In this document: one piece after another, positions 6,134-39,460 of the stretch
Position numbering within the stretch: position 1 is the first letter of the stretch
Layout: each line of letters begins with the position of its first letter
IMG/VR virus record: IMGVR_UViG_3300049893_003686
DNA length: 64,000 nt
From: a virus
Direction: 5' to 3' (one strand)
The notes under the pieces: generated by a model
What the model saw: the letters and a program-made list of their open reading frames with translations, nothing else
Told to the model about the DNA's origin: nothing
Databases searched by the model: none
Made by a program: the position numbers and the translations under genes

Positions 6134-7243
6134 ATGCATGATGAAATCAATGTTGGAGTTGTAATCGGAAGATTCCAACCTCTACACATCTGTCACCTCT
6201 CAGAGGCGATCTTGCCCGCCCTAGATGAATCAGACACATTAATCATTCTTCTCGGATCATCGCACAGACCAAGTACACCTAAAAATCCATGGACGGACTC
6301 TGATAGGGCGGAGATGATTCATCTTGGCCTAAAAGACGCAGGGATGACCGTAGAGGCATATGGAAATTGGTTATTAAAGATAGGTGCGAGTGACACTACT
6401 CAAAAGACGGTATATATTGTTCCAATAAGAGACTTTGCTTATTCAGATATTCAGTGGCAGATGCAAGTGCAGGAGAAAGTAAGAGAGATCGTTTCATCCT
6501 GCTCAAATCTCGATAGCAAATATGAATCTGCAAAAATTAATCTATTTGGAGTAGATCGTGATGATACCACATTCTACCTTAAATTATTTCCTCAATGGAT
6601 AGATAAAACAACTAAGCGGGATAAGAGCTCCGATCAAGTTAAGGGCACAATGTGCAGAGAGCTGATTTTTGCTAGCGGCGCAAAAGGTCATGGGGAGTGG
6701 GGAAAGTACTTGTCACCCCAGGTATCAGAATTCATATTAAATTGGTGTAACTCAATATCATTTTCATCACTTAAAGAAGAGTTTGATTTTCTCAAACGAT
6801 ATAAGGCAGACTTATCTGGATATAAATATCCAATTATATTTCAAACAGTAGATAATATTATTCTATATAAGGGGCACGTCTTCTTGCTAAATAGGAGGAG
6901 TTTCCCTGGAAAAGGATTGCTATCTTTACCGGGCGGGTTTATAGATTCCAGTCTAACTCTACTTCAGAGCGCGCTATCTATAGCCAAAGAGAAAAGTAAA
7001 CTTAATCTTAAATTAGACTGGCTTGTAGCAAGCAAGACTTTCGATTATCCCGGACGCTCACTAAGAGGCAGGACTATCACTACAGCATTTCTCTGGAAAT
7101 TACCCGAGACAATGAATGTAATAGTTGCAGGGGCAAATAAAGAACACTGGTATCAGCTATGCGATATCATGAAAATGAGTGATTTCTTATATGAAGATCA
7201 CTATGATATCATAATTGATATGCTACAGCTTAGCAAGACATAA
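6134..7243 (+). CDS. Bifunctional-type nicotinamide-nucleotide adenylyltransferase (NMNAT) with a C-terminal Nudix-like domain
   Basis: The N-terminal GRFQPLHICH matches the cytidylyltransferase (H/T)xGH motif of NadR/NadM-type NMNAT. The C-terminal LPGGFIDSS..LSIAKEKSKL is a degenerate Nudix box that has lost the REx2EE acidic residues. Confidence 0.8.
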   Translation: MHDEINVGVVIGRFQPLHICHLSEAILPALDESDTLIILLGSSHRPSTPKNPWTDSDRAEMIHLGLKDAGMTVEAYGNWLLKIGASDTTQKTVYIVPIRDFAYSDIQWQMQVQEKVREIVSSCSNLDSKYESAKINLFGVDRDDTTFYLKLFPQWIDKTTKRDKSSDQVKGTMCRELIFASGAKGHGEWGKYLSPQVSEFILNWCNSISFSSLKEEFDFLKRYKADLSGYKYPIIFQTVDNIILYKGHVFLLNRRSFPGKGLLSLPGGFIDSSLTLLQSALSIAKEKSKLNLKLDWLVASKTFDYPGRSLRGRTITTAFLWKLPETMNVIVAGANKEHWYQLCDIMKMSDFLYEDHYDIIIDMLQLSKT

Positions 7244-7286
7244 GTCGATATACGACGCATATAACTTATTTTCGGAGGAATATACC

Positions 7287-8768
7287 ATGGAATTTTCAAA
7301 ATTTCTACATACTGACAGTTATAAATTAGCTCACTTCGAGCAATATCCAGCAGCCAAGAAGATGGTTGCTTATGGTGAATTTCGCAAGCCGTATCCTAAT
7401 ATTAAAGATGAGCGAATTGTTGTATACGGCATACAGTATTTAGTAGATAAATTTTTAAACAAACAGTGGACGGTAGAAGAACTTAATGCCGCATCACAAT
7501 TTGCCAGCAAACATAATGCTGGTTTAAAAGAATACCCATTTCCTCGGAAATTATTTACCGACATGATTGCTGAAAATAACGGATACTTTCCAGTTAAGGT
7601 AGAGGCTGTTCCGGACGGAACAGTGGTATACCCACATGTGCCAGTGTATCAGATTACAGCAGAGGGGAAGTATTCGGGTCTGGTAACATACATCGAAAGT
7701 TTTCTGTCGCACTTATGGTATTCAACTACTGTAGCAACTCTTTCACGACATACTAAAACACTTATCAAAAATGCGTTCGATCTTACTGTAGATGATAATA
7801 TGAGGTGGTTACTTGGGAGTCGATTGCATGATTTTGGTTATCGAGGCTGTGCGTCTGATGAGCAGGCTATGATCGGAGGTGCCGCACACCTACTTAATTT
7901 TGATGGTACAGATACGATGCTAGCTGCTGCATATGCACACTATCAAAATAATGGAGAAGAATTTGCACAAAGTATTCCAGCTACAGAGCATTCGGTAATG
8001 ACATCATGGCCATCAGAAGTTGATGCAGTTCGAAATATGATCCACCACTACGGAGATGGTGTATTTGCCTGTGTAGCTGATAGCTATGACTATAAGCACT
8101 TTCTTCATCATGTATTGCCAGCAGTAGCAGCTGATGTGCAGGCTAAGGGCGGCACAATGGTAATTAGACCAGACTCTGGCGATCCACTTAAATCAGTGAT
8201 AGACGGACTCTATGCTTGTCAAAGATATTTTGGAATATCCTATAATAAAAAGGGATTTAAGGTACTGAACAATAGCGCAATAATTCAAGGTGACGGCATT
8301 AATATAGAGATAGTTGATAACATACTTACTGAGGTTATTAATAATGGATTCAGCGCACAGAACGTAGCCTTCGGCATGGGCGCCGGCCTATTACATAAAC
8401 ATAATAGAGATACTATGAGTTTTGCCACTAAGTTATCATATATTGAATATGCAGATGGGACAAGTAGGAACATTATGAAGGCACCTAAAACGGATCCGGA
8501 GAAGTACTCACTACCTGGTATACTTAAGGTAATTAATGATGACCTATTGAAGGTTGGAACAGAAGAAGATCGTGGTAATAACTTGCTGATAACAGTGTAT
8601 GATGGCAGACCAGTAGATTTTAAAGAGAAATTTTCTAACATCCGCGCTAAGGTAGAACATCAATGGAATCTCTTACCGCCTAAAGTAGAAAACCTATTTA
8701 CAGATAAGTTAAAGATGAAGATAAATGAGACAATCTTTAACTTAAGAAATAGCACGTCCAAATCCTAA
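7287..8768 (+). CDS. nadV: Nicotinamide phosphoribosyltransferase (NAMPT)
   Basis: The N-terminal HTDSYKLAHFEQYP matches the TDSYK signature. CGGAGGAA SD at 7273-7280. The length (~493 aa) and the GYRG and GDG blocks fit NAMPT. The track start at 7215 is probably an upstream extension. Confidence 0.9.
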   Translation: MEFSKFLHTDSYKLAHFEQYPAAKKMVAYGEFRKPYPNIKDERIVVYGIQYLVDKFLNKQWTVEELNAASQFASKHNAGLKEYPFPRKLFTDMIAENNGYFPVKVEAVPDGTVVYPHVPVYQITAEGKYSGLVTYIESFLSHLWYSTTVATLSRHTKTLIKNAFDLTVDDNMRWLLGSRLHDFGYRGCASDEQAMIGGAAHLLNFDGTDTMLAAAYAHYQNNGEEFAQSIPATEHSVMTSWPSEVDAVRNMIHHYGDGVFACVADSYDYKHFLHHVLPAVAADVQAKGGTMVIRPDSGDPLKSVIDGLYACQRYFGISYNKKGFKVLNNSAIIQGDGINIEIVDNILTEVINNGFSAQNVAFGMGAGLLHKHNRDTMSFATKLSYIEYADGTSRNIMKAPKTDPEKYSLPGILKVINDDLLKVGTEEDRGNNLLITVYDGRPVDFKEKFSNIRAKVEHQWNLLPPKVENLFTDKLKMKINETIFNLRNSTSKS

Positions 8769-14627: not shown

Positions 14628-17222
14628 ATGAATCCAGGCAAATATACACTACAAGCACAGTCTCTATTTATTGACAGCCAGCGAATTGCTAAAGCATATC
14701 AGCACCAGGCAATTGAGCCCGAGCATATGCTGAAGGCACTATTGCAAAATAAGCATGTCTGCAGTGCATTAAGCAAATATACTATCATTAGCGAGCTTGA
14801 GCGTAAAATAGATTTAGAACTACATAAGATACCTCAAGTGCAGGCAGTGAATTATTTGTCACCACGATTTCTTAAAATTGCTTCTGCAGCAGAGGTAATC
14901 GCTACAAAAGCAAACGTTAAGACCGACATAGTGCATTTCTTACTAGCTCTTACCGACGCACGTGTAAATACTTCGATGAGCGGAAGAATATTGCGCGATG
15001 CGGGCTTGACCAGAGAGTATATCGAAGGTGGTATGGCAAGAGCTGGTAAGCCAAAGCAGAAAGCAACAACGGACTCTGCAGTTAGCAAATACGCCATTGA
15101 TCTCACTCAGCGCGCTAGGGACGGGAAAATAGACCCTATAATTGGCAGGGACGAGGAGATACGTAGAATCATTCAGGTTCTCTCCCGACGTTCGAAGAAT
15201 AGTCCAATTCTAATAGGCAAACCAGGTGTAGGGAAAAATACAATTATAAATGGGCTTGCACAGCGAATTGCGGCAGGAGATGTCCCATCCCCACTAATAG
15301 ATTGTAGAATCATGGCGCTAGATATGGGAGCGCTGTTGGCCGGAGCATCATTGCGTGGCCAATTCGAAGAGCGCATGAAGGCAGTAATTGCTGAGGTAAA
15401 TCAAGAAGATGAGAATATCATTTTGTTTATCGATGAAATCCATACATTGGTAGGAGCCGGTGGAGAGGGGGCATCTGATGCTAGTCAGATGCTAAAACCC
15501 CCGCTTGCTCGTGGCGAGATTCAGGTACTTGGAGCTACCACACCAGACGAATATCGCAATTCAATCGAGAAAGATAAGGCTTTGGAGCGTAGATTCCAAC
15601 CCATTCTTGTCGAAGAACCATCATATGATGAGACATTGCGAATTTTACGCGGAATAAAGACCAAATATGAAGTTCATCACGGGGTTCGCATCCAAGATGC
15701 TTCCCTATCTGCTGCCATAAAGTTCTCACAACGGTATATATCTGGACGACATCTACCAGATAAAGCCATTGATTTAATTGATGAGGCAGCCTCTAGGTTG
15801 CGGGTGGCAATAGATTCTGTGCCAGATGAGCTTGATAGTGAAAGTAGAAAGCTAACTCAATTAAAGATGGAATTAGCTGCAATTCATGGTGACTCTGGAC
15901 ACGATACGCACGAGCATAAGAGTAGATTGGAGCATCAAATTTCAGAGGCGGAGAAATCAGTATCAGGATTGAAGTCCAGATGGGAATCCGAGGTTAGCCT
16001 TATACAATCAATTAGGGCTATCAAGGAAGGTATAGAAGAGTCTAGCGCTAAGCTAGAATCCGAAACTAGAAGTGGAAATATAAGCAAGGCCTCAGAATTA
16101 AAGTACGGACAACTACAACGTCTAAAGGCAGATTTAGAAGTAACTACACGCGATTTAAAATCACTACAAAAAGATGCCCCGCTTATCAAAGAAGAGGTAG
16201 ATCCTAGCGATATTGCCGGCGTAGTAGGTGACATTACAGGAATTCCAATTGCATCAATGCTAGAGTCCGAAAAGGAAAAGCTGCGCAACATGGAACAGTA
16301 CTTATCATCACGTGTAATTGGACAAAAGGAGGCATTAAAGGCGATATCTCAAGCCATTCGCCGTAGTCGCTCAGGCCTTAATGATCCAAATCGACCAGTA
16401 GGTAGCTTCTTTTTTCTGGGCCCAACAGGTGTCGGGAAAACTGAGTTAGCTAAAGCGCTTACCCAATTTCTCTTTGATGACGAACGATCTATGATTCGCT
16501 TGGATATGAGTGAATTCCAAGAAAAGCATACTGTAGCGCGACTTATCGGAGCTCCTCCAGGATATAAAGGTGCCGATGATGGAGGGCAATTAACTGAAGC
16601 CGTCAGACTTAAACCATACTCAGTCATCCTATTTGACGAAGTAGAAAAAGCGCACCCTGATATATTCAATATATTATTGCAAGTACTTGATGATGGTCGA
16701 CTAACAGATAGTCAGAGTAGGCTCGTAGATTTCAAGAATACGGTTATTATTATGACATCAAATGTAGGTTCGCAGCATCTACTTACAGCTACAGCCAGTG
16801 ATGGCAGTCTGCCTGATGAGGCAAAAAATGCAGCATTCTCCGATCTACGAAAGTTATTTAGACCAGAATTTCTTGGAAGAATTGATGACGTAATCATGTT
16901 TCACGGTCTCACCAGAAATAATATAGAACATATTGCCAACATTCAACTAAAGAAAGTTTCAGGAATGTTGGCGACACGTAAATTAACGATGAATATATCA
17001 GAAGCAGCACTTAAGGCCATAGTAGATGCTGGGTTTGAGCCACAATTCGGAGCACGACCATTAAGAAGAGCAATCCAGCGTTGGCTGCAAGATCCATTAT
17101 CTTCAGCTATTCTTGAAGGGGGCTACACAGAAGGTGACACCGTATCTGTAGATTTAGCAGAGGATGATGAAAATACAGGCCTTATATTTAGGCGTATAAA
17201 CACTAATGTGAAAAGCAACTAA
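14628..17222 (+). CDS. clpB: ClpB-type AAA+ disaggregase
   Basis: Clp N-domain, two Walker A loops (GKPGVGKN and GPTGVGKT), a long coiled-coil middle domain between them, and 864 aa. Confidence 0.95.
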   Translation: MNPGKYTLQAQSLFIDSQRIAKAYQHQAIEPEHMLKALLQNKHVCSALSKYTIISELERKIDLELHKIPQVQAVNYLSPRFLKIASAAEVIATKANVKTDIVHFLLALTDARVNTSMSGRILRDAGLTREYIEGGMARAGKPKQKATTDSAVSKYAIDLTQRARDGKIDPIIGRDEEIRRIIQVLSRRSKNSPILIGKPGVGKNTIINGLAQRIAAGDVPSPLIDCRIMALDMGALLAGASLRGQFEERMKAVIAEVNQEDENIILFIDEIHTLVGAGGEGASDASQMLKPPLARGEIQVLGATTPDEYRNSIEKDKALERRFQPILVEEPSYDETLRILRGIKTKYEVHHGVRIQDASLSAAIKFSQRYISGRHLPDKAIDLIDEAASRLRVAIDSVPDELDSESRKLTQLKMELAAIHGDSGHDTHEHKSRLEHQISEAEKSVSGLKSRWESEVSLIQSIRAIKEGIEESSAKLESETRSGNISKASELKYGQLQRLKADLEVTTRDLKSLQKDAPLIKEEVDPSDIAGVVGDITGIPIASMLESEKEKLRNMEQYLSSRVIGQKEALKAISQAIRRSRSGLNDPNRPVGSFFFLGPTGVGKTELAKALTQFLFDDERSMIRLDMSEFQEKHTVARLIGAPPGYKGADDGGQLTEAVRLKPYSVILFDEVEKAHPDIFNILLQVLDDGRLTDSQSRLVDFKNTVIIMTSNVGSQHLLTATASDGSLPDEAKNAAFSDLRKLFRPEFLGRIDDVIMFHGLTRNNIEHIANIQLKKVSGMLATRKLTMNISEAALKAIVDAGFEPQFGARPLRRAIQRWLQDPLSSAILEGGYTEGDTVSVDLAEDDENTGLIFRRINTNVKSN

Positions 17223-17278: not shown

Positions 17279-18409
17279 ATGAAATTCCCTATTATCGAGC
17301 ACACAATTTTACTTACAATAGCAGGCTCTAGGAGTTACGGTATGCACAAAAGTGACTCCGATATAGACCTAAAAGGGATAGCCATCCCTCCTATAGATTC
17401 CTATATTGGAGTTTTACCAAATTTCGAACAAGTAGAGTCATCAGAAGCAATGATGGTATATTATCCTCTACTATCGAATGATGAGAAAGATATTTCAGAT
17501 AAATATAAGCTTGAAGGGGTTATATATGATTTGCGTAAATTCATACGACTGGCATCTGGTTCAAATCCCAATATCTTAGATGTATTATTTTGCGATGATG
17601 AGCACGTCAGGTTCTCATCAAAGGCAGGAGATATCATAAGGGCTAGCAGAGATCTATTCATATCTGCACAGGCTAAGCATACATATTCTGGTTATGCAAC
17701 GGCGCAATTTAAGCGCATTAAGACTCATAGGGGATATCTGCTAAATGCTCCAAAGACAGAGCCAGACAGGAGTGAGTTCGGTCTATCAAAGGACCACTGC
17801 ATTCCACGTGCCCAGGTAGAGGCATCTTTATCAGAGATTAATAAGAAACTTGATGAGTGGGAATTAGATCTTAGCTCTATAGATTCTGAGTCTGACAGAA
17901 TGTCGATATTAAATAATATTGCACAAGTACTATCAGAAATAATGTCAACAACTGACTCTAAATGGAAGAGCTCCGCTAGAAACATCGGCTATGGCGATAA
18001 CCTTATTGAAATTCTAGACAAGGAGCGTAGATTTAGACAGGCTAAGAACGAATGGGATAAATATCAATATTGGAAGAAGGGGCGAAACTCAGCACGAGCG
18101 AAACTAGAAGAAAAATACGGGTATGATACCAAGCACGCTTCTCACTTAGTTAGATTAATGAGGATGTGTTATGAGATTTTAGTAGATGGCAAGGTCAATG
18201 TCAATCGCAAGAAAATAGATGCCGATGAATTAGTTGCGATTCGAGATGGCTCATGGAGCTACGATAAGCTAGAGGAATTCTTTATAACGATGGATAATAA
18301 ATGCAGCGAGCTGTATAATAGTAAGTCATATAGCATTCCACATAGGGTAGATATGAGTGCGATAAATGCATTGTGCGTACAACTCATCTCCGATAAGTAC
18401 AAAATGTGA
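17279..18409 (+). CDS. Pol-beta-superfamily nucleotidyltransferase, RlaP-like (RNA-repair-associated family)
   Basis: The N-terminal GSRSYGMHKSDSDIDLKG matches the G-S-x-x-Y-G..S-D-x-D minimal NTase motif of that family, as I recall it. Confidence 0.6.
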   Translation: MKFPIIEHTILLTIAGSRSYGMHKSDSDIDLKGIAIPPIDSYIGVLPNFEQVESSEAMMVYYPLLSNDEKDISDKYKLEGVIYDLRKFIRLASGSNPNILDVLFCDDEHVRFSSKAGDIIRASRDLFISAQAKHTYSGYATAQFKRIKTHRGYLLNAPKTEPDRSEFGLSKDHCIPRAQVEASLSEINKKLDEWELDLSSIDSESDRMSILNNIAQVLSEIMSTTDSKWKSSARNIGYGDNLIEILDKERRFRQAKNEWDKYQYWKKGRNSARAKLEEKYGYDTKHASHLVRLMRMCYEILVDGKVNVNRKKIDADELVAIRDGSWSYDKLEEFFITMDNKCSELYNSKSYSIPHRVDMSAINALCVQLISDKYKM

Positions 18410-20062: not shown

Positions 20063-20672
20063 CTTAAATAACCATAGCCTCTCAGTGCAATATAAGAATT
20101 ATACATTAAGCCATTGTCAACATCCATCAAAGTTTGTAATAAATACATTCAAACGACATGGTCAAATAACATATTTTTACCTCGCAAAATATAATGTCGA
20201 TAAATGTGGAGAGTATGACTATCACTACAATTCTACAAATCAATACATCACCCTTCCAATAGACAAAATTAGTTCAACACGAGATATAATAGAAGTATGT
20301 GGCGCGAGAGGTATGAGCGAGATTGGGATAACCTCACTTGTGAAAACAATACATGGAAATGCCAACCTTCCTATGATAGATTTTATAGGAAGGCCGCCAA
20401 TAGAAGAAATACAACAATTGTGCATAAAGCTAGCAGATATATTTAATATGGATAGGGTATTTGAAATATATGACAGTGGAAACTCATATCACGCATATTT
20501 CGCTAGCTTATTAGAGCCAGACCACTATAAGGAATACTTGTCATTATTAAAAGATTATAGTATAGTAGATCGTGGTTGGGTTCATTATGCGCTAAGGGGT
20601 CAGACGCCTGTAGCTGTACTCAGATGGTCAGCATTCACAGGTATAAAGGGTGTAATATCAAAAATCGCATGA
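20055..20672 (+). CDS. Hypothetical protein (weak primase-polymerase-like SGNSYHAYF motif)
   Basis: 205-aa ORF. The motif resemblance to the AEP sGxGxH block is weak. Confidence 0.6.
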   Translation: MLDLNNHSLSVQYKNYTLSHCQHPSKFVINTFKRHGQITYFYLAKYNVDKCGEYDYHYNSTNQYITLPIDKISSTRDIIEVCGARGMSEIGITSLVKTIHGNANLPMIDFIGRPPIEEIQQLCIKLADIFNMDRVFEIYDSGNSYHAYFASLLEPDHYKEYLSLLKDYSIVDRGWVHYALRGQTPVAVLRWSAFTGIKGVISKIA

Positions 20673-21322
20673 TTAAAAGTATAACACAAATACCGTTAAC
20701 CTTTCATTGGTCGGTATCGGGAATGATAGCACTTTCTTCTATCATTAGTGGTCCAATAGGAATCTATTATGCTTTTGCAATCTTCCTTTCGGTAATCATA
20801 CATGAATATGCTCATGCTATAGCAGCAAGCAGTCGTGGATTCACTACATCCGGCATTACCATTCATGGTTTTGGAGGAATGGCCAATATAACTGGGTTAG
20901 CGACAGCAAATCAGAGAGATGTAGCTATCATCGCTCTTGCAGGTCCATTAGCCAATGCCGTTGTGGCCGGAATTATGCTCCCAATGACAACTATAGTCCT
21001 AAATACAGGACTAACTACATTATATACTATATGTAATATTCTGCTATTATCAAACATATATATGGCTATAGTGAATATGGCTCCAGTATATCCACTAGAT
21101 GGCGGAAAAGCGCTATCCGCGCTACTAAAGATACACTTTGGCTATTATAAATCTGAACAAATCACTCAAAGAATATGCGCCATATTCCTTATTGCCATGT
21201 GGATAGTAACACTTTCACACCTTCACTCTCTAATAGAGACAACTATACTTCTATCTATTATTGGAATTATATCACTTAGCCTTAACAAAAAGAAAGATAT
21301 TGATTATTCAAAAGTAGATTAA
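20669..21322 (+). CDS. M50-family (site-2 protease-like) membrane metalloprotease
   Basis: HEYAH (HExxH) lies in a TM segment, NMAPVYPLDGG supplies the second motif, and the protein is multi-pass hydrophobic. ATG 20669 forms an ATGA overlap with the upstream stop. Confidence 0.8.
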   Translation: MIKSITQIPLTFHWSVSGMIALSSIISGPIGIYYAFAIFLSVIIHEYAHAIAASSRGFTTSGITIHGFGGMANITGLATANQRDVAIIALAGPLANAVVAGIMLPMTTIVLNTGLTTLYTICNILLLSNIYMAIVNMAPVYPLDGGKALSALLKIHFGYYKSEQITQRICAIFLIAMWIVTLSHLHSLIETTILLSIIGIISLSLNKKKDIDYSKVD

Positions 21323-23113: not shown

Positions 23114-23926
23114 ATGAAAAATTTTACGAGATTAGTTGGCGCACTTTCTATTGCTCTATTGCATGGCTGCGGCTGTGAAATTGTTGATCCAGGAAATAGA
23201 GGTGTGGTGGTAGAATGGGGTAAAGTACAAGAGCCAGCAAGAGGAGAGGGATTCCAAACTTATTGTCCAATTGGTTGTACCTTAGAGCAAGTAAGTGTGC
23301 GACAGCAAAAAATCGACGTAGCTGCACCATGCTTCAGCAGTGATTTACAACAGGTAAATCTTAATGTCACAGTCATGTATCGCATTCCTGAAAAGTCAGT
23401 TCCAGCTATTTTTCGAGATTTCCACGGAGAACCATTCGATGTACTAGTGTCACCACGAGTGCAGGAATCGATCAAAGAGGCTACAGCCACACGATCTGCT
23501 GAGATGATTGTTAAGGAAAGAGAAACAGTAAAGAATCTGGCACTTGAAGCAGTACGTAAAAAGGTTGGGCCAATCCTTGTAATTGAGGATATGATTATTT
23601 CAGATGTTAAATTAAGCAAGCAACTAACCGACTCAATTGAAAGCAAAATGGTACAAGAACAAGAAGCCGCAAAGGCGAAGTATATGCAACAACAAAAGCA
23701 AATTGAAGCAGATACTCGCGTATTGGAGGCCACTGCAGAGGCAAAGGCCACTCTAGCTCGTGCTCAAGCCGAGGCAGAGTCAATCAAAATTCGCGGCGAG
23801 GCACTGCAGGAGAATCCTGGAGTAGTCCAATTGCAACTGATTGAAAAGTGGAATGGCATTAGTCCCCAGATTATTTCCGGAGCAAGCGGAATAAATGTAC
23901 TACTACCAGCCTCAACCACAAAATAG
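23114..23926 (+). CDS. SPFH/band-7 (prohibitin-like) protein, lipoprotein-type signal
   Basis: The signal ends LLHGC. The SPFH core (..VVVEWGKV..NLNVTVMYRI..) is followed by an Ala/Glu/Gln-rich coiled coil. Confidence 0.85.
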   Translation: MKNFTRLVGALSIALLHGCGCEIVDPGNRGVVVEWGKVQEPARGEGFQTYCPIGCTLEQVSVRQQKIDVAAPCFSSDLQQVNLNVTVMYRIPEKSVPAIFRDFHGEPFDVLVSPRVQESIKEATATRSAEMIVKERETVKNLALEAVRKKVGPILVIEDMIISDVKLSKQLTDSIESKMVQEQEAAKAKYMQQQKQIEADTRVLEATAEAKATLARAQAEAESIKIRGEALQENPGVVQLQLIEKWNGISPQIISGASGINVLLPASTTK

Positions 23927-25567: not shown

Positions 25568-25643
25568 GCGCCTGTAGCTCAGCGGATAGAGTACTTGTCT
25601 TCTAAATAAGGTGTCGTAGGTTCGAATCCTACCAGGCGCGCCA
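25568..25643 (+). tRNA. tRNA-Arg (anticodon TCT), CCA encoded
   Basis: Cloverleaf read by hand. Acceptor GCGCCTG/CAGGCGC. D arm GCTC-AGCGGATA-GAGT. Anticodon arm CTTGT-CTTCTAA-ATAAG. Variable loop GTGTC. T arm GTAGG-TTCGAAT-CCTAC. Discriminator G followed by CCA. Confidence 0.9.
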
Positions 25644-25936: not shown

Positions 25937-26560
25937 ATGCTTAGAGCTGAAGGTAAGCTGCCTAGAGATGTATACGTAGCTTGTTCTGGCGGCGTAGACA
26001 GTATGGCAGTGCTTGCGTTTTTAATGCGCCGAGAAGTTAAGCCACAAGTAGTCTACTTTAATCATAGGACTGATCATTCAGAAAAAGCAGAAGAACATGT
26101 ACGTACATTCTGCACTAAGCACGCCCTCAATCTTACCATAGGAACTATTCTTCGTGATCGCCTTAGCCGTGAGTCTAAAGAGGAATTTTGGCGAAACGAG
26201 AGATATAAATTCCTGCACGGACTATCTCTACCAGTAATTACAGCGCATAACTTAGACGATTGTATTGAAACATGGATCTTCTCTTCATTGCATGGAGAAG
26301 GAAAAATGATTCCATACAGAAATCGAAATGTAATTAGACCATTTAGACAAACACATAAGGCAGAGTTTATCAGATGGTGCACGAAGAATAACATCCCATG
26401 GATAGAGGACGAGTCAAATAAGAATATATTATTTGCACGCAATAGAATCAGACATGCACTTATGCCAGAAGTTCTAAAAATCAATCCTGGAATTTCTAAA
26501 GTAATTAGAAAGAAAATCTTGGCAGAAAGTGATATGCATAGGCTTTCCCCGCCACTCTAA
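25937..26560 (+). CDS. tilS: tRNA(Ile)-lysidine synthetase-like PP-loop ATPase (N-terminal catalytic domain only)
   Basis: PP-loop ACSGGVDSMAV, then ..VYFNHRTDHSEKAEEHVRTFC..L.. as in TilS. AAGGAGAG SD. At 207 aa it lacks the long TilS C-terminal domains. Confidence 0.7.
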   Translation: MLRAEGKLPRDVYVACSGGVDSMAVLAFLMRREVKPQVVYFNHRTDHSEKAEEHVRTFCTKHALNLTIGTILRDRLSRESKEEFWRNERYKFLHGLSLPVITAHNLDDCIETWIFSSLHGEGKMIPYRNRNVIRPFRQTHKAEFIRWCTKNNIPWIEDESNKNILFARNRIRHALMPEVLKINPGISKVIRKKILAESDMHRLSPPL

Positions 26561-28430: not shown

Positions 28431-28510
28431 GAGAATTAATCTAGATATAAGGTCACATTAACTATAACTATAGCGTCATGCTGGCGTATATAGGAATAAT
28501 CGGAGAAAAG

Positions 28511-30802
28511 ATGAAGAAATATATTTTCGCAACGCTACTGCTCGCAACTACAGCGGCAGCATCAAATAGCGATAAATCTCATCATGAAAAGGTGGAGATT
28601 TGTCATAAGGATCATCATGAAATTAGTGTCGACGAGCATGCTGTCGAGGCGCATATTGATCACGGCGATTGTCTCGGGACATGTCCATGCGCCCCATTGC
28701 CAGAATGCCAATCTGATGCTGATTGTACTAACGATCTATTCTGTGATGGCAACGAATCATGCCTCAATGGAAGCTGTGTGGCAGGAGAGTCTCCGTGTGA
28801 GCACAGCTTATCATGTGACGAAGTGGAAGACCTATGTGTGCAACAGCCAGATTGCATTACCGATAGCGATTGTGACGACGGAGTATTTTGTAATAATCAA
28901 GAATTATGTTTAAATGGCTCCTGTGTTTCTTTTGGAGATAGTCCATGCCCAGACTACATTTGTGTAGAAAAGTATGCCATATGCGTATTGCCACCAGAGT
29001 GTCATGTAGATGACGATTGTACGAATGGACTATTTTGCGACGGGCACGAATTATGTTCAAATGGAGCATGCGTATCCAATGTACTTCCATGCCCTGAAAC
29101 AGAACAGTGTGACGAAGAATCTGATGCTTGTTTTAATGCAGGTGAGGGTGAAGGAGAAGGCGAGGGAGAAGGTGAGGGTGAAGGAGAAGGCGAGGGAGAA
29201 GGTGAGGGTGAAGGAGAAGGCGAGGGAGAAGGTGAGGGTGAAGGAGAAGGCGAGGGAGAAGGTGAAGGCGAGGGTGAAGGTGCCGAGAAAACAAACTTAT
29301 TTGTCTCAGGGTCAGGGATTTTTTCATGCTCTGAGTCATCATCTCCAGACCTGTTTATACTTGCACTATTCTTGCCAGCACTGCTAATATCACAAAAGCG
29401 TAGGGCACTAGTAGCAACCTTAGTAATTGGACTATTTTCATTCTCTGCTTCTGCAGAAGGATTAAATCGTGTAGGTGGCCCAACATCATTTAACGATTCC
29501 CCGCAAGCATCATCAGCGGATCTACTGCCTAACCTTACATTGCAGACTGGTCTAAACTTAGATTACTCGCATGCTCCATTGGTGCTCAGAGACGTAGCTT
29601 TTATTAAGCATAGTGATTTGGTCGAACACCAATTCTCAAGTAGCATCAATGCAGCAATGGGATTTCGCGATGTCGTGCAATTAGATCTAGCATTGCCCAT
29701 TTCAGTCGCAACAGGACAGGGTTTAAATTTGGATGGAACACCATCAGCTGGTCTTCAGGATATGACAGCTGGTGTTAGATTGCGGTTGACTGACAGCAAA
29801 GCACCATTACGCACTGCCCTTAGCCTTAAAGGTACGATGCCAACATCGCTATTGTCATTTAATGGAATGCCAACATTTGGAGAGGTATTCCCGACGCTTA
29901 CCCCAGGAGTCTTACTTACTGCCGGCAATGAGTTGGCATCAGTTACACTAAATACAGGATACACTATTCGTATTCCTAAAAATGTAGCGGATCTTCAAAT
30001 GGGACATACTGTAAATGCAGCTGTAGGTGGACAACTGTGCTTACTTAAAGATAGCTTGTGGTTAGTCGGAGATGTTGGCACAAGTCTATCAGCACAAGGC
30101 TTGTTTACAAATCGATTATTTATGCCAGTAGAGGCGACACTTGGCTTTAAAGGAAAGCACGGTCCTTTCTATGGAATGGTAGCCGCTGGCTCTGGGCTAT
30201 TGCCCGACGTTGGGACCCCTGATGTGCGCGTTTTGGCTTCATTAGGTCTTAATTTTGACTTTGCAACTAAGCAGAAAGCACGTACCACTAGCAAGTTAGT
30301 TACAGAGCATAATCCTCTGCCACCTCCACTTGATTCCGATGGCGATGGGATCCTTGATCAAGATGATAAGTGTCCAAATGATCCAGAGGATTTTGATGGA
30401 TTTGAGGATTCAGATGGGTGCCCAGAGCAAGAGTTAGTAGTAATAGAGTCAGAAAAAATCATATTGTTATCCCCAGTGTACTTTTTCTTTGACTCAGATC
30501 AAATTAAACCAGAAAGCTTTCAAGTATTGAATGATGTGGCAACTGTACTAAAAGAGCATACTGAGATTAAGCTATTGTCTATTGAGGGGCATGCCTCAGC
30601 AGAAGGTGAATTGGATTATAACCAAGCACTTAGTGAACGCCGAGCTTTGGCAATAGTAAAATTCCTCCAAAAGGCAGGAGTTGCTACAGAACGACTTGTT
30701 GCACTCGGGCATGGAGAGAATAATCCGGCTGAATCAAATAAGACAAAAGCTGGACGTGAAAAAAATCGCCGCGTAGAGTTTCGTATTCTAGAAAAGCAGT
30801 GA
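28511..30802 (+). CDS. Composite OmpA-family envelope protein: signal peptide, 4 Cys-rich repeats, (EG)n tract, internal sorting-signal-like/TM pair, putative beta-barrel region, thrombospondin type-3 (DxDxDG) repeats, OmpA C-terminal peptidoglycan-binding domain
   Basis: GGAGAAAAG SD precedes ATG 28511 (MKKYIFATLLLATTAAAS). Four repeats match DxDCxxxxFCxGxExCxNGxC. The TSP3 repeats read DSDGDGILDQDDKCPNDPEDFDGFEDSDGCPE. The OmpA_C domain reads ..IEGHASAEG..YNQALSERRA..NRRVEF. Confidence 0.85.
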   Translation: MKKYIFATLLLATTAAASNSDKSHHEKVEICHKDHHEISVDEHAVEAHIDHGDCLGTCPCAPLPECQSDADCTNDLFCDGNESCLNGSCVAGESPCEHSLSCDEVEDLCVQQPDCITDSDCDDGVFCNNQELCLNGSCVSFGDSPCPDYICVEKYAICVLPPECHVDDDCTNGLFCDGHELCSNGACVSNVLPCPETEQCDEESDACFNAGEGEGEGEGEGEGEGEGEGEGEGEGEGEGEGEGEGEGEGEGEGEGEGAEKTNLFVSGSGIFSCSESSSPDLFILALFLPALLISQKRRALVATLVIGLFSFSASAEGLNRVGGPTSFNDSPQASSADLLPNLTLQTGLNLDYSHAPLVLRDVAFIKHSDLVEHQFSSSINAAMGFRDVVQLDLALPISVATGQGLNLDGTPSAGLQDMTAGVRLRLTDSKAPLRTALSLKGTMPTSLLSFNGMPTFGEVFPTLTPGVLLTAGNELASVTLNTGYTIRIPKNVADLQMGHTVNAAVGGQLCLLKDSLWLVGDVGTSLSAQGLFTNRLFMPVEATLGFKGKHGPFYGMVAAGSGLLPDVGTPDVRVLASLGLNFDFATKQKARTTSKLVTEHNPLPPPLDSDGDGILDQDDKCPNDPEDFDGFEDSDGCPEQELVVIESEKIILLSPVYFFFDSDQIKPESFQVLNDVATVLKEHTEIKLLSIEGHASAEGELDYNQALSERRALAIVKFLQKAGVATERLVALGHGENNPAESNKTKAGREKNRRVEFRILEKQ
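29141..29282 (+). repeat. Perfect 30-bp tandem repeat x4 plus a partial copy, encoding (GE)n inside the OmpA-family gene
   Basis: GGTGAGGGTGAAGGAGAAGGCGAGGGAGAA occurs at 29141, 29171, 29201 and 29231 with no mismatch seen. A divergent partial copy spans 29261-29282. Confidence 0.95.
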
Positions 30803-30857: not shown

Positions 30858-31628
30858 ATGAGCAGTAATGAACTTGGTTTGAAGATTAAAAGTTTATATG
30901 AAAATCGTACACGACTCTTGCTAGATCAAGATGAGTATATAATTATCAGAATTGATGGTAAGAATTTTTCAAGATATACTCGTAAGCTCAAAAAGCCATT
31001 CGATCAGGATCTTGCAGATGATTTCGACCAAACTGCTAAGATATTGTGCTCTCAAATCATGGGAGCACATATGGCATATACTCAAAGTGATGAGATAAGT
31101 ATTGTAGTTTCGAATTTTAGTTCTTCAGGTAAGGACATCTGGTTTAACGGAAATATACAAAAAATAGTTTCAGTATCATGTTCAATGGCAACAGCATCAT
31201 TTAATGATTCAAGAATAAAGCGAAGTGTTGATTATAAAGGTGGAATTTTTGATTCTAGGGTATTTACAATACCTGATCGCTCATCAGTATTAGAGTATTT
31301 AACCTGGAGACAAAAGGATGCAAGTAGAAATTCCATTTCCATGATTGCAAGAAGCGTAATGAGTAGTAAAGAAATGCATGGAATTTCTACTGGCAAAATA
31401 ATAGAGATTTTAAAAGATAGAGGAATAGACCTCAAAATATATAATCAAGGTCTATTGTATGGAAGAATTATTTTCAAAGAAAAATTTACAGTAACCGCTA
31501 CTCATAGTGAATACGGGATTGCTCAAAATTCTGATTCACTCAGAACAAGATGGGTAGCTAAGACAGCACCAAATTTCTCTAAAGAAGACATTTCCATAGA
31601 ATTGATTCCAGAAAGAAAGCTTTCTTGA
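30858..31628 (+). CDS. Thg1-like protein (tRNA-His guanylyltransferase / 3'-5' polymerase family, TLP)
   Basis: IIRIDGKNFSRYT..KPFDQDLADDF..MAYTQSDEISIV matches the Thg1 palm-domain blocks. Confidence 0.8.
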   Translation: MSSNELGLKIKSLYENRTRLLLDQDEYIIIRIDGKNFSRYTRKLKKPFDQDLADDFDQTAKILCSQIMGAHMAYTQSDEISIVVSNFSSSGKDIWFNGNIQKIVSVSCSMATASFNDSRIKRSVDYKGGIFDSRVFTIPDRSSVLEYLTWRQKDASRNSISMIARSVMSSKEMHGISTGKIIEILKDRGIDLKIYNQGLLYGRIIFKEKFTVTATHSEYGIAQNSDSLRTRWVAKTAPNFSKEDISIELIPERKLS

Positions 31629-32184: not shown

Positions 32185-33492
32185 ATGATTAAGATTCCGC
32201 TTTCAATCTCCCCGTCATATGTTAGCTGGTCATGGTGGCATGCAATGCGCGAATTATTCCAAAATGGAATGGACGCACATGAGCAAGGGCTGCTAATGAC
32301 CTATTCATTTGATGAGAAGTTGCGACAATTAGCGATCAAGAATGAGGGAGCTAGTTTACCTAGAGAATCGCTTGTTCTTGGAGTTACATCGAAGAGAAAT
32401 GCCGCTAATCAACGCGGAGAATTTGGAGAGGGCTATAAGCTTGCAATGGCAACACTGTGTCGCTTAGGAGCGCATGTTACTATTTTTAACGGTAAAGAGA
32501 TCTGGATTCCGGAACTAATTCACTCAGATGTATTTAATACAGAAGTTCTATCATTTACCATTAAACCTAGCGCTATAGAGCATTCGCTTACAATTGTAGT
32601 AACAGGGATTCCAGTAGCAGAGTGGGAATTAGCAAATGAAAGATTGCTATTCTTATATGATACCCAACCTAAAGCGCTATCATGCAATGATGGCTCTATT
32701 TTATTAGAGCCGCAATATGCCGGTAAATTATATGTAAAAGGCATTTTTGTAAATGACTTACCAGATAAACATAAATTTGGATATGATTTATCTAAAATTA
32801 AGCTAGATCGAGATAGGCAAATTCCAGACATATATGCGTTAAGATATGCTTTATGCTGCCTGCTAAAAAGAACTACAGAGCTTGGCTTGCTAAAGCCGCT
32901 AGAAGTACTGGAAATTCTAGAGGCAGAATCAGGTGAGATTAGAGCATTTGATGCAGATTTTGCGAAATCTCCAGTCTTTGAGAAAATTGTAGCAGAAGCA
33001 TTCGATACAAAATACGGGAAAGATGCCATCCCAGTTAAATCATTAGATGACAGTATCAGAGCCAAAGATTTTGCTCTAAAAGGAGTAATTGTTAACTCTA
33101 CCCTTCTAAGGATTCTTAATAATACCAAGGTATCATTAAATCAGATTGTGGAATCTATGGTTCTATTGCCAACTAAAATCTGGTCGGCAAATGAACTTTC
33201 TAATGAGGAGATTTCAAATTTAAAATGGGCTGTAGAGTTAACGGCAAGGGTAGAGCCAATATCACTAACTCAAATTTCTGTTGTAGATTTTATAGGCGAT
33301 AAATTATATGGAAAGTTTGAATTTAGTACAGAGCACGTATCTATCGCTAGAAGAATTTTATGCGACAAGGTAGAACTAATTGCCACCATGGTGCATGAAA
33401 TATGTCATCGCTATGGTCCAGATGGCGACCTGAGACACAGATATGCAGTAGAAAATAGGTTGTCAAAACTCATCCTACTAGGGCAGAACTAA
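32185..33492 (+). CDS. GHKL/sacsin-like ATPase-fold protein with a C-terminal HExxH motif
   Basis: The N-box ExxxNxxD appears as MRELFQNGMDAH. RGEFGEGYK resembles the GxFGxGF block. VHEICH lies near the C-terminus. Confidence 0.55.
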   Translation: MIKIPLSISPSYVSWSWWHAMRELFQNGMDAHEQGLLMTYSFDEKLRQLAIKNEGASLPRESLVLGVTSKRNAANQRGEFGEGYKLAMATLCRLGAHVTIFNGKEIWIPELIHSDVFNTEVLSFTIKPSAIEHSLTIVVTGIPVAEWELANERLLFLYDTQPKALSCNDGSILLEPQYAGKLYVKGIFVNDLPDKHKFGYDLSKIKLDRDRQIPDIYALRYALCCLLKRTTELGLLKPLEVLEILEAESGEIRAFDADFAKSPVFEKIVAEAFDTKYGKDAIPVKSLDDSIRAKDFALKGVIVNSTLLRILNNTKVSLNQIVESMVLLPTKIWSANELSNEEISNLKWAVELTARVEPISLTQISVVDFIGDKLYGKFEFSTEHVSIARRILCDKVELIATMVHEICHRYGPDGDLRHRYAVENRLSKLILLGQN

Positions 33493-37852: not shown

Positions 37853-39460
37853 ATGTCAATATTAAATACCGATGCAACTCAAACTCAGATATATGATAAT
37901 CGACAGATAAGAAATTCTGCTGGCGGCTATTCATTTGCAGTGGAAAATATGGATTATGTGCGGCGATTTCTAATTTTAGGAAGCGAGGGCGCGCAATATA
38001 GCCTACAGAATAGGCCAACTCTGTCGTTAGAGAACTGCCCGCATATATTGTTTATGCTAGATGCCGATGGCCAAAAAGTAGTAGAAGAGCTGGTCAAGGT
38101 ATCATTACAAGGCAGGGCGCCGAAGCAAGAGCCGACACTATTCGTATTAGCACTGGCAGCTAGACATAAGGATCTCGCTGTGCGTAAAGCCGCATTTGAT
38201 GCCGTGCAGAAGGTATGTCGCACAGCAACTATGCTATTTACCTTCTTAGATTTCTATAAAAAGTCCGGGGTGACATCTGGCTGGGGTCGCCTTATGCGAG
38301 ATGCGATATCGTCATGGTATAATAATAAGGATTTGCAATCTTTAATATATCAAGTTACGAAATATGGTAGTAGAAATGGGTGGTCGCATCAAGATGTGCT
38401 ACGTTTAGCACACACAAGGCCAGTAGATCAAGATCATTCTCTGTTATATAAGAAGATTACTTCTAAAAATAAGTTTAATATCGACATCAATATCGCTTCT
38501 GATAAGAATGCTTTTAATAAACTGCTAGCCATTGAAGCGGTGAAATTAGCAACAGAGGCAAAAAGTATCATCCCGTTAATTACAGAATTTAATTTAGTAC
38601 ATGAGCAGGTACCATCATCGCTAAAGCTTTGTCCCGATGTATGGGATGCATTGCTAGATAATATGCCATTAACTGCATTAATTCGTAATCTAGGAGCGAT
38701 GACATCCTCCGGGTTGCTTGTTAATGGAAATAGTGCTTCAAGAAGAGTGAGAGAAAAGCTATCTAATTTAGATACAATTAAGAGTGCAAGAATACATCCA
38801 TTTAATGTACTCACAGCATACAATACCTATGCAAAAGGAGTTGGTCAATTAGGTCACAAAAAATGGAACCCTAGTGAAGATATTATTGAAGCGCTAGATA
38901 GCCTATTCTATACCTCATTTACATTTATAGATCCATCGCATAAGCGCACACATCTCGCTATTGATGTATCGCGTTCGATGGATATGGGTACAATTCTTGG
39001 CTCGCCGGGGATGTCTCCTCGATTCGGCGCAGCCGCAATGTCAATGGCAACGCTGCGTTCTGAGGATAATGTTTCGATGAGCGCATTTTCGCATACATTA
39101 GTACCGCTACAATTTTCACCCAAAGATGATTTGCAGACAGTTATCAAGAAGATGAGGTCTATTAAAATGGGCGCCACAGATTGCGCCCTACCAATAACCA
39201 CTGCCATGCAGTCGAAGACCCCTATTGATACATTTGTTATATATACCGATAATGAAACTTGGTTCGGAAACGTTCACCCAATGGCAGCATTGCGCCAATA
39301 TCGAGATAGAATGGGAATTCCTGCCAGACTCATTGTCGTTGCAATGAAAGAAACAAACTTTACCATTGCAGATCCCGAAGATGCGGGTGCATTGGATGTA
39401 GTTGGATTTGATTCTGCCACTCCAGCTGTCATAGCAGAATTTTCACGCGGGGAGTTATAA
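37853..39460 (+). CDS. Ro60-related TROVE-domain protein with a C-terminal vWA domain
   Basis: The N-terminal NSAGGYSFAVENMDYVRRFLILGSEGAQY is characteristic of Ro/Rsr. The MIDAS DxSxS motif appears as IDVSRSM. 535 aa. Confidence 0.9.
   Translation: MSILNTDATQTQIYDNRQIRNSAGGYSFAVENMDYVRRFLILGSEGAQYSLQNRPTLSLENCPHILFMLDADGQKVVEELVKVSLQGRAPKQEPTLFVLALAARHKDLAVRKAAFDAVQKVCRTATMLFTFLDFYKKSGVTSGWGRLMRDAISSWYNNKDLQSLIYQVTKYGSRNGWSHQDVLRLAHTRPVDQDHSLLYKKITSKNKFNIDINIASDKNAFNKLLAIEAVKLATEAKSIIPLITEFNLVHEQVPSSLKLCPDVWDALLDNMPLTALIRNLGAMTSSGLLVNGNSASRRVREKLSNLDTIKSARIHPFNVLTAYNTYAKGVGQLGHKKWNPSEDIIEALDSLFYTSFTFIDPSHKRTHLAIDVSRSMDMGTILGSPGMSPRFGAAAMSMATLRSEDNVSMSAFSHTLVPLQFSPKDDLQTVIKKMRSIKMGATDCALPITTAMQSKTPIDTFVIYTDNETWFGNVHPMAALRQYRDRMGIPARLIVVAMKETNFTIADPEDAGALDVVGFDSATPAVIAEFSRGEL

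Follow-up and report, generated by a model that had tools for sequence, protein, structure and literature searches.

A TraA-like stalk read through into a TraB homolog in a probable jumbo-phage genome: a candidate single precursor for both partners of an outer-membrane surface complex

What does a gene encode when its single frame runs through the apparent end of one exported protein and straight into the apparent beginning of another? The question is raised by a gene on the plus strand (28511..30802; 763 codons and a stop) of a 64,000-nucleotide stretch of viral DNA, IMG/VR record IMGVR_UViG_3300049893_003686, the whole of which was analyzed and is called the window below. What defines sorting signals of the LPXTG, PEP-CTERM, and MYXO-CTERM kinds is a place at the extreme C terminus. 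In this product, a sorting-type signal stands mid-protein and is followed by a signal peptide and an outer-membrane barrel, a layout that we found in dozens of the relatives retrieved. In this report we provide evidence that the product is a TraA-like stalk with a Cys-containing sorting-type tail, read through into a homolog of TraB, an identity that we regard as well supported. Our preferred interpretation, which we hold with moderate confidence, is that the gene encodes one precursor of both partners of a TraA/TraB-type outer-membrane surface complex, that it is carried by a probable jumbo-phage genome (i.e., one of over 200 kb), and that the precursor is cut at the junction between its two halves.

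The C-terminal half is best described as a TraB homolog, collinear from the signal peptide through the OmpA domain, and this assignment is well supported by profile and pairwise comparisons. TraB (NF033763) ranks first among NCBIfam families for the window protein, as it does for each of the four other relatives tested (146–266 bits), and in the ortholog on the Joint Genome Institute (JGI) contig L001, the match is one stretch over profile positions 43–498 of 522. BLASTP of the C-terminal half against TraB from Myxococcus xanthus returns one collinear alignment (27% identity, E 3e-36) of residues 24–444 of that half with TraB residues 49–500, which spans the barrel, the TSP3 region, and the OmpA domain. 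Similarly, hhalign of the phage-clade C-terminal half with the TraB profile gives a probability of 100% (E 1.3e-56) over 451 columns. Because this last alignment begins within the signal peptides (query 7 onward against TraB 9 onward), the second hydrophobic helix of the fusion, H2, appears to correspond to TraB's own signal peptide. H2 (residues 299–315, ALVATLVIGLFSFSASA; 29405..29455, +), which ends in SASA, is the segment that the first-pass annotation of this DNA had read as a second signal peptide, correctly so in light of this alignment. Downstream of H2, AlphaFold2 (AF2) predicts a 12-stranded outer-membrane β-barrel similar to that of TraB (residues 316–593; 29456..30289, +), with a predicted local distance difference test (pLDDT) score of ~90 or more over this region of ~278 residues, in agreement with the β-rich segment noted at first pass. 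The barrel is followed by a TSP3-like calcium-binding motif (residues 606–639, DSDGDGILDQDDKCPNDPEDFDGFEDSDGCPE; 30326..30427, +), in which the D/G/C columns of a DxDxDGxxDxxDxCP pattern are invariant in a 30-sequence alignment and which aligns with the TSP3 region of TraB. The earlier TSP3 assignment holds for this motif but not for the Pfam family TSP_3 (PF02412), which stays below threshold (15.2 bits, E 0.018, against a gathering cutoff of 25). The C terminus consists of an OmpA peptidoglycan-binding domain (residues 641–763; 30431..30799, +), as anticipated, with PF00691 matching residues 657–753 at 74.1 bits against a gathering cutoff of 27.2. This succession of signal peptide, N-terminal barrel, TSP3 motif, and C-terminal OmpA domain is that of TraB. 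Unlike TraB, which has a gene of its own, this half belongs to a single open reading frame (ORF) with no stop at the junction.

The N-terminal half has the layout of TraA, viz. a signal peptide, a Cys-rich stalk, a disordered linker, and a Cys-containing sorting-type tail. The ORF listing of the window gives an open frame at 28478..30802 (+) with no stop inside, and the ATG at 28511 is taken as the likely start on account of a GGAG 6 nt ahead of it (28501–28504); a scan for promoters and terminators around the gene revealed nothing above chance. By reading, residues 1–17 (MKKYIFATLLLATTAAA; 28511..28561, +) form a Sec signal peptide with MKK, a hydrophobic core, and AAA, whose identity among orthologs is 24–47%; low conservation is usual for signal peptides. 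The next 45 residues (18–62, ..HHEKVEICHKDHHEISVDEHAVEAHIDHGDCLGTCPC; 28562..28696, +) form a His/Cys-rich tip module, the best-conserved part of the phage orthologs (67–71% identity), which AF2 models with a pLDDT of ~75 for residues 30–50 and for which a Pfam search matched no family. The module is found in the distant relatives P0139–P0146, in some as two copies, and its pattern, ..(K)V.ICH......H.I.V...A..AH..HGD.LG.C, is seen once or twice at the N terminus of, for example, P0144 and P0146; it may be a metal-binding or recognition unit. Residues 63–209 (28697..29137, +) comprise three 49-residue repeats with eight Cys each (Cys positions 66–207), presumably a disulfide-stiffened stalk. 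A Glu-Gly low-complexity linker of 47 residues follows (211–257; 29141..29281, +), which is encoded by a tandem repeat (29140–29282; 4.7 copies of a 30-nt unit) and differs in length between orthologs. These figures replace the four Cys-rich repeats and ~70 Glu-Gly residues counted at first pass, the His/Cys module being separate from the repeats. A match of the Glu-Gly run to PF22807 ("TrAA12-like") was rejected as a low-complexity match below that family's own cutoff. The resemblance to TraA appears confined to the Cys-rich stalk and the overall layout. Against the TraA stalk, hhalign gives a probability of 92% (E 5.4e-7) over 67 columns, pairwise BLASTP with TraA gives an E of 0.013, and TIGR04201 matches the Cys repeats weakly (12.7 bits, E 0.11, against a cutoff of 25); only in the Cys-rich stalk can the N-terminal half be aligned to TraA.

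The junction between the halves reads ..NLFVSGSGIFSCSESSSPDLFILALFLPALLISQKRR-ALVATLVIGLFSFSASA-EGLN.., as quoted at first pass, in an uninterrupted ORF. We compared it with true traAB loci taken from 30 Myxococcaceae and Archangiaceae genomes, using as query the TraA tail printed in PMC11980579. In all but one of the 22 loci fetched, traA ends in ..R-x-R with a TGA that shares bases with the traB start codon (ATGA, in the sequence ..R-x-R ATGA AGC..), and TraB starts with MKPS, after which come a hydrophobic core and AxA|QPD or APD. The 4-base overlap between traA and traB has been described, with overlap in every orthologous pair examined (PMC3325183, PMC6372800). Because the two genes overlap in this way, a one-base change would fuse them, and reading through the ATGA would yield precisely the order observed here: Cys motif, short helix, basic residues, signal peptide, AxA, and mature barrel. 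Split versions of the gene, a search for which had been suggested earlier, exist as traA and traB in 21 of the 22 loci. Together with the collinearity of the C-terminal half with TraB and the TraA layout of the N-terminal half, this supports the proposal of the first-pass annotation that the gene is an in-frame union of two units, here seen to occur elsewhere as separate genes. The TraA/TraB relationship itself, like the phage setting, had been missed.

An obvious concern with any such fusion is that it could be an artifact, in which a sequencing or assembly error masks a stop or start at the junction, or in which the contig is chimeric. Low-complexity DNA such as the Glu-Gly stretch upstream can cause assembly slips, and beyond that we found no support for this idea. 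The L001 ortholog (L001 9479–11689, on the 367,953-bp contig Ga0394875_0000017 of JGI 3300037501; a 736-residue ORF whose GTG start overlaps the stop of the preceding gene) and P0002, a 765-residue ortholog in a Logan assembly (L004 10001–12298), are both full length, and the three proteins are 51–60% identical in an alignment that is unbroken across the junction. At least three further phage-like contigs (L001, L004, and L006, one of them 368 kb) contain the ORF, likewise uninterrupted; the open frame is shared by independent assemblies of different samples (L001/L002/L003, L004, and L006) as well as by dozens of distant relatives, and both halves are conserved at the protein level in one frame. 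The independent assemblies exclude the sequencing error at the junction that had been named as capable of undoing the fusion, and an artifact in general is something we can barely credit. Alternatively, the TraB-like half might be made by separate translation from a start within the ORF, as would follow from the JGI gene call P0001 (476 residues from TTG 29372, starting "LPALLISQ"). A start at this codon would give M-PALLISQKRR-hydrophobic-SASA, which looks like a signal peptide. However, this TTG, which is the sole in-frame ATG/GTG/TTG from the Glu-Gly run to AEG, lies in the middle of the first junction helix, H1, with no Shine-Dalgarno-like sequence upstream. Nor is the position of the start conserved, since the L001 ortholog is called from another internal codon (P0003, from L001 10001, inside a Cys repeat) and the Logan protein P0002 is full length. 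We consider separate translation very improbable and treat the short JGI gene calls as probable annotation artifacts. Such calls lose all or most of the N-terminal half, which makes the fusion invisible in those annotations.

How widely is this architecture shared? A phmmer search with the junction and barrel against 1.84 billion cluster representatives returned 363 clusters at E ≤1e-3. The nearest relatives (P0139, P0140, P0141, and P0143–P0146) show the same order of tip, Cys repeats, acidic linker, SGSxxxC, helix, RRK, signal-like helix, AEG, barrel, and OmpA domain, and each of them retains the Gly and Cys of the motif. Since the layout recurs in relatives with only 24–30% identity in the junction-plus-barrel region, it is not due to chance. 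One of these relatives, P0145 (27% identical over junction and barrel), lies in a phage-like locus, L006, with Thg1, RNA ligase, NUDIX, HSP20, SLT, and Dam methylase genes; a homolog search with an alignment of the low-G+C relatives recovered it alone of the wanted set. A second group, from high-G+C bacteria (P0020–P0029, P0098, and others, labeled Kofleriaceae or Archangium where named), displays a long Cys-rich or other N-terminal part, GGGCxC-helix-RRRR, a signal-like helix, the barrel, several TSP3 repeats, and the OmpA domain. The context is bacterial for P0024, whose neighbors are Ser/Thr kinase, FHA, ECF sigma factor, and M1 peptidase genes. About one-third of the top 150 barrel relatives have a Cys-helix-basic-helix hairpin ahead of the barrel, and in these hairpin-bearing proteins the N-terminal part ranges from 3 to ~1,500 residues. 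One cluster is labeled "Deltaproteobacteria bacterium" and one "MYXO-CTERM domain-containing". The suggestion made at first pass of a link to Myxococcota thus finds an echo in the contexts and labels of the bacterial relatives, and in the internal MYXO-CTERM of one of them (P0023, below), but it is weak as a hint about the host because the window is jumbo-phage-like with 39% G+C. Some bacterial TraB-like proteins—P0004 (L005 6513–8360), P0019, P0028, and P0203—have only 3–20 residues before the GGGC-helix-RRRR-signal-peptide hairpin and lack an N-terminal domain for export; for P0004, the nearest upstream neighbor in L005 is a divergent gene at a distance of just 74 bp. Such short N termini could be the vestige of a lost TraA-like part, or they could reflect another route of membrane entry. 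Other searches were negative. The phage-clade junction-plus-barrel alignment found no relative and no chromosomal copy among the GTDB species genomes scanned, and nothing in a pattern scan of IMG/VR viral contigs; tblastn with the fused protein against GenBank phages matched generic OmpA domains only; and the literature searched contained no account of a MYXO-CTERM inside a protein, of TraA fused to TraB, or of a copy carried by a phage.

The next question is whether the precursor is processed at the junction. The segment ahead of H2 has the three-part layout of a sorting signal. A signature with Cys273 (residues 262–281, NLFVSGSGIFSCSESSSPD; 29294..29353, +; Cys273 codon 29327–29329) is followed by the short hydrophobic helix H1, LFILALFLPALLIS, and the basic QKRR, which a hydrophobicity scan delineates as the stop-transfer part of the tail (residues 282–298; 29354..29404, +). 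Cys273 is the sole Cys C-terminal to the repeats, the Gly and Cys of the motif are invariant in nine relatives with identity down to 24%, and residues 261–270 have an AF2 pLDDT of 83. Tails were excised and scored alone against NCBIfam, in which the MYXO-CTERM models TIGR03901 and TIGR03382 have cutoffs of 20 and 15.85 bits, respectively. The tail of true TraA, our control, scored 20.6 bits with TIGR03901 (TIGR03382 was not listed). The tail of the bacterial fused protein P0023 scored 24.2 and 18.7 bits with the two models, that of P0004 17.7 and 20.3, and that of the phage ortholog P0002 16.1 and 14.9, while the tails of the window protein and of the L001 ortholog matched neither. The window tail is therefore not a MYXO-CTERM by model, but it occupies the same position as the bona fide MYXO-CTERM of the homologous P0023. 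It is also not terminal, with 465 residues C-terminal to the basic cluster. In short, what stands of the sorting signal proposed earlier is the three-part layout and the invariant Cys, not a match to any CTERM model.

Processing at two sites is the best-supported mechanism for this junction, as judged from sequence features. On the C-terminal side, a signal peptidase I site is predicted after Ala315, between 29455 and 29456. H2 closes with small residues at −3/−1 (SASA in the window; an AxA-like end in 34 of 42 relatives), and among the three close orthologs H1 (24–47%) and H2 (18–24%) are the least conserved parts, whereas the 27 residues after AEG are 67% identical, a step that is as expected at a signal-peptidase site. 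Moreover, in the AF2 model the first barrel strand is only ~27 residues away from H2, so that a barrel left tethered could hardly reach the outer membrane. On the N-terminal side, cleavage at the Cys by a myxosortase-type CPBP protease would follow from homology and from the finding that MrtX cuts MYXO-CTERM in a manner dependent on Cys residues (PMC11980579). Alternatively, the anchor could be only half processed, with signal peptidase cutting after H2 and the Cys motif left uncut, in which case the N-terminal half would be held in the inner membrane by the H1-KRR-H2 hairpin. Facing the periplasm, it would perhaps touch the freed barrel/OmpA part, which would make the pair an envelope-spanning bridge with no surface stalk. 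The failure of the window copy to match a sorting model is in keeping with this, as is the absence of a CPBP gene from the window and the fetched flanks. Nevertheless, we think it unlikely that processing stops there. The Gly and Cys ahead of H1 are invariant down to 24% identity, and one tested bacterial relative, P0023, has a model-passing MYXO-CTERM at that very position. A stable membrane span requires roughly 20 hydrophobic residues, and H1 has only ~14, similar to the cleaved TraA tail (TTFLLLLAAGLTFL). Finally, the motif is preceded by a disordered acidic linker, as it is in MYXO-CTERM proteins (PMC11980579). Since no CPBP gene was seen in the window or flanks, processing at the Cys would depend on the host. 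A phage-encoded myxosortase was considered and rejected, the sole window protein with multiple transmembrane segments being an M50 protease and not a CPBP protein. This 248-residue protein (20576–21322, +; five predicted transmembrane segments) matches Peptidase_M50, the site-2 protease family, with an E of 1.7e-15; it might, speculatively, clear leftover signal or hairpin peptides.

For a precursor cut on both sides of its junction, as we propose, biogenesis would proceed as follows. The first signal peptide would take the N-terminal half through Sec until H1 and KRR halt transfer, with KRR staying in the cytoplasm, and H2 would then re-insert as an internal signal peptide, leading to export of the C-terminal half. 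Signal peptidase I would cut after SASA (Ala315/Glu316) and release the TraB-like part, which the β-barrel assembly machinery would put into the outer membrane and whose OmpA domain would bind peptidoglycan. A host Cys-directed protease of the myxosortase (CPBP) type would cut at Cys273, presumably lipidated as in MYXO-CTERM proteins, and the Cys-rich stalk with its His-rich tip would finally be held at the cell surface by a lipid anchor and dock on the barrel. In the TraA:TraB complex, which is 1:1, the recognition head is presented by the TraA stalk, and anchorage of the pair to peptidoglycan is provided by TraB (PMC12045341). A single precursor would fix the ratio of the TraA-like to the TraB-like part at 1:1.

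The role of such a complex is the weakest step of this proposal. Our best guess is a surface adhesin or fusogen-like complex that would decorate the infected host and bring about cell-cell contact, outer-membrane mixing, or another surface change; envelope stabilization and superinfection exclusion are serious alternatives. The phage version is unlikely to be a kin-discrimination device because the polymorphic head is replaced by a small tip that is conserved (67–71%). The same biogenesis could also serve another job, in which the protein would be a phage "moron", a peptidoglycan-tethered barrel with a decorative stalk and no TraAB-like adhesion or membrane fusion, which would stabilize the envelope through the long jumbo-phage cycle or block superinfection by masking receptors. 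This is plausible, even if it is not the outcome we expect. Phage proteins with a barrel and an OmpA domain exist (BFVD matches, e.g., Cellulophaga phage phi17:2, and tblastn matches), there is no PA14 recognition domain, the tip is not polymorphic as in a kin-recognition receptor, and the TraB score is well below the equivalog cutoff. However, the full two-part layout is kept in phage-like relatives in which the junction and barrel are only 24–30% identical, which argues that stalk and tip matter, and TraB is the closest characterized family for the entire C-terminal half. At the other extreme, a clade of jumbo phages might possess its own self-contained TraAB-type adhesin or fusogen, made as a polyprotein with an internal Cys sorting signal, by which infected cells stick to their neighbors or fuse outer membranes with them. 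We rate this as improbable; if true, such a device could share receptors, spread phage-encoded factors, or recruit new hosts.

Several observations weigh against our preferred interpretation of a processed TraA/TraB-type precursor encoded by a jumbo phage. On NF033763, the window protein scores 160 bits, far under the curated cutoff of 700, and NF033759 (TraA; cutoff 750 bits) is absent among the matches of the N-terminal half listed at E ≤10. Pfam detects no PA14, the signal peptide and the first Cys repeat are only 45 residues apart, and the N-terminal half is without the variable domain that gives TraA its recognition function. The window tail fits no NCBIfam sorting-signal hidden Markov model, its signature being SGSGxFxCS as opposed to the GGGCxC of MYXO-CTERM, and no CPBP/myxosortase gene is present in the window or was flagged within 10 kb in related loci. 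The G+C content of 39% is unlike that of cultured myxobacteria. Lastly, the 64 kb showed no gene for a capsid, portal, or terminase protein, which leaves gene content and synteny as the basis for the designation as phage.

These two lines nevertheless suggest that the window is probably part of a jumbo phage and not of a myxobacterial chromosome. The coding direction is the same for almost all its ORFs, many of which have matches in PHROG families; its genes include those for NAMPT, a cytidylyltransferase, a ClpB-like ATPase, RlaP, Thg1, a PP-loop ATPase, a deaminase, a Ro/TROVE-like protein, an FtsK-like ATPase, DNA ligase, a helicase, a methyltransferase, and HNH-like proteins, as well as one tRNA-Arg. 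Among GenBank phages, the helicase finds its best matches in jumbo phages, namely phage G, XacN1, and a 636-kb uncultured phage (~25% identity in each case), and a syntenic relative of the window lies on the 367,953-bp contig. Megablast of 24 kb of the window, aimed at close relatives among GenBank phages, returned a tRNA match only. At 6134–8768 (+), the cytidylyltransferase-like gene (phrog_395) adjoins the nicotinamide phosphoribosyltransferase gene (phrog_448, E 4e-117) in what looks like an NAD+ salvage pair; NAD+ synthesis systems have reportedly been found in jumbo phages. An 864-residue ClpB-type double-AAA chaperone (phrog_4871, E 5e-252) is encoded at 14628–17222 (+).

The immediate surroundings of the fused gene contain further genes of potential interest. 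A membrane-associated protein of the SPFH/Band 7 family (E 4.9e-27) is encoded a few kilobases upstream, at 23114–23926 (+). Genes for tRNA or RNA repair are nearby, namely RlaP of the pol-beta family (17279–18409), tRNA-Arg(TCT) (25568–25643), a TilS-like PP-loop ATPase (25937–26560), Thg1 (30858–31628), and a Ro/TROVE-like RNA-binding protein (37853–39460). Thg1 is directly downstream of the fused gene; it also adjoins the L004 ortholog and lies ~7.4 kb upstream of the L006 relative. A 435-residue protein with no Pfam or PHROG match (32185–33492, +) is a near neighbor of the fused gene in L001 and L004 too, and shows by eye an ExxxNxxD..GxxGxG pattern that would fit a GHKL-like ATPase. L001 (2622–5710) and L004 (3302–6720) encode a second OmpA-domain protein, whose N-terminal part appears by eye to be solute-binding-like; after it come genes for an ABC permease and an ABC ATPase. 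The cassette was looked for in the window and is absent.

What would these findings mean more generally? If the junction is cut on both sides, the product is a bacterial membrane polyprotein, and models that demand a C-terminal position would miss such sorting signals. On the more far-reaching reading that we rate as improbable, the polyprotein design with an internal sorting signal, common in Myxococcota-type metagenomic proteins, would represent a general and undescribed route by which a surface protein and the barrel it pairs with are produced in equal amounts. To our knowledge, TraA and TraB are the only proteins needed for myxobacterial outer-membrane exchange, according to forward genetic screens. 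A reduced, fused relative that has no recognition domain and is retained across a diverse clade of giant-phage-like contigs would be a natural experiment, bearing both on which parts are needed for adhesion or fusion and on whether phages manipulate contacts between host cells.

Comparison with known systems highlights similarities and differences at each level of this architecture. Phage outer-membrane proteins such as the OmpA-domain protein of Cellulophaga phage phi17:2 likewise bring a peptidoglycan-binding phage product to the host outer membrane; known examples consist of a single part, and none in our searches has a stalk rich in Cys, a sorting tail within the chain, or collinearity with the whole of TraB. 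Other 12-stranded outer-membrane barrels, the COG4313/Phenol_MetA_deg channels and FapF (PDB 4rl8 and 5o65), are only 11–13% identical to the barrel described here and have neither a TSP3/OmpA extension nor an upstream fused partner. Autotransporters also combine a passenger and a 12-stranded β-domain in one polypeptide. However, their passenger is threaded through or beside its own barrel with no hairpin between the two, whereas in the fused protein a stop-transfer helix and a second signal peptide separate the parts, each of which would cross the inner membrane alone. With MYXO-CTERM/MrtX systems (TIGR03901/TIGR03382; NF040593; PMC11980579), the fused protein shares an invariant-Cys signature, a short helix, a basic cluster, and a preceding low-complexity linker. 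The differences are that MYXO-CTERM is C-terminal, whereas here a signal peptide follows directly and 465 more residues remain, with no match to the hidden Markov models and no myxosortase gene seen nearby. TraA/TraB of M. xanthus (MXAN_6895/MXAN_6898; NF033759 and NF033763) is a parallel for both halves, in the order of parts in the C-terminal half, in the layout of the N-terminal half, and in the order of A before B. The Cys repeats here appear to be of another type (TIGR04201 stays below its cutoff), both family cutoffs are far from reached, and the setting is a phage-like genome with 39% G+C instead of a myxobacterial chromosome. In M. xanthus, there are two genes with an ATGA overlap and a PA14-like variable domain, whereas here there is one ORF and a conserved 45-residue His/Cys tip. 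The 1:1 ratio measured for TraA and TraB (PMC12045341) is the ratio that would be expected for the fused product.

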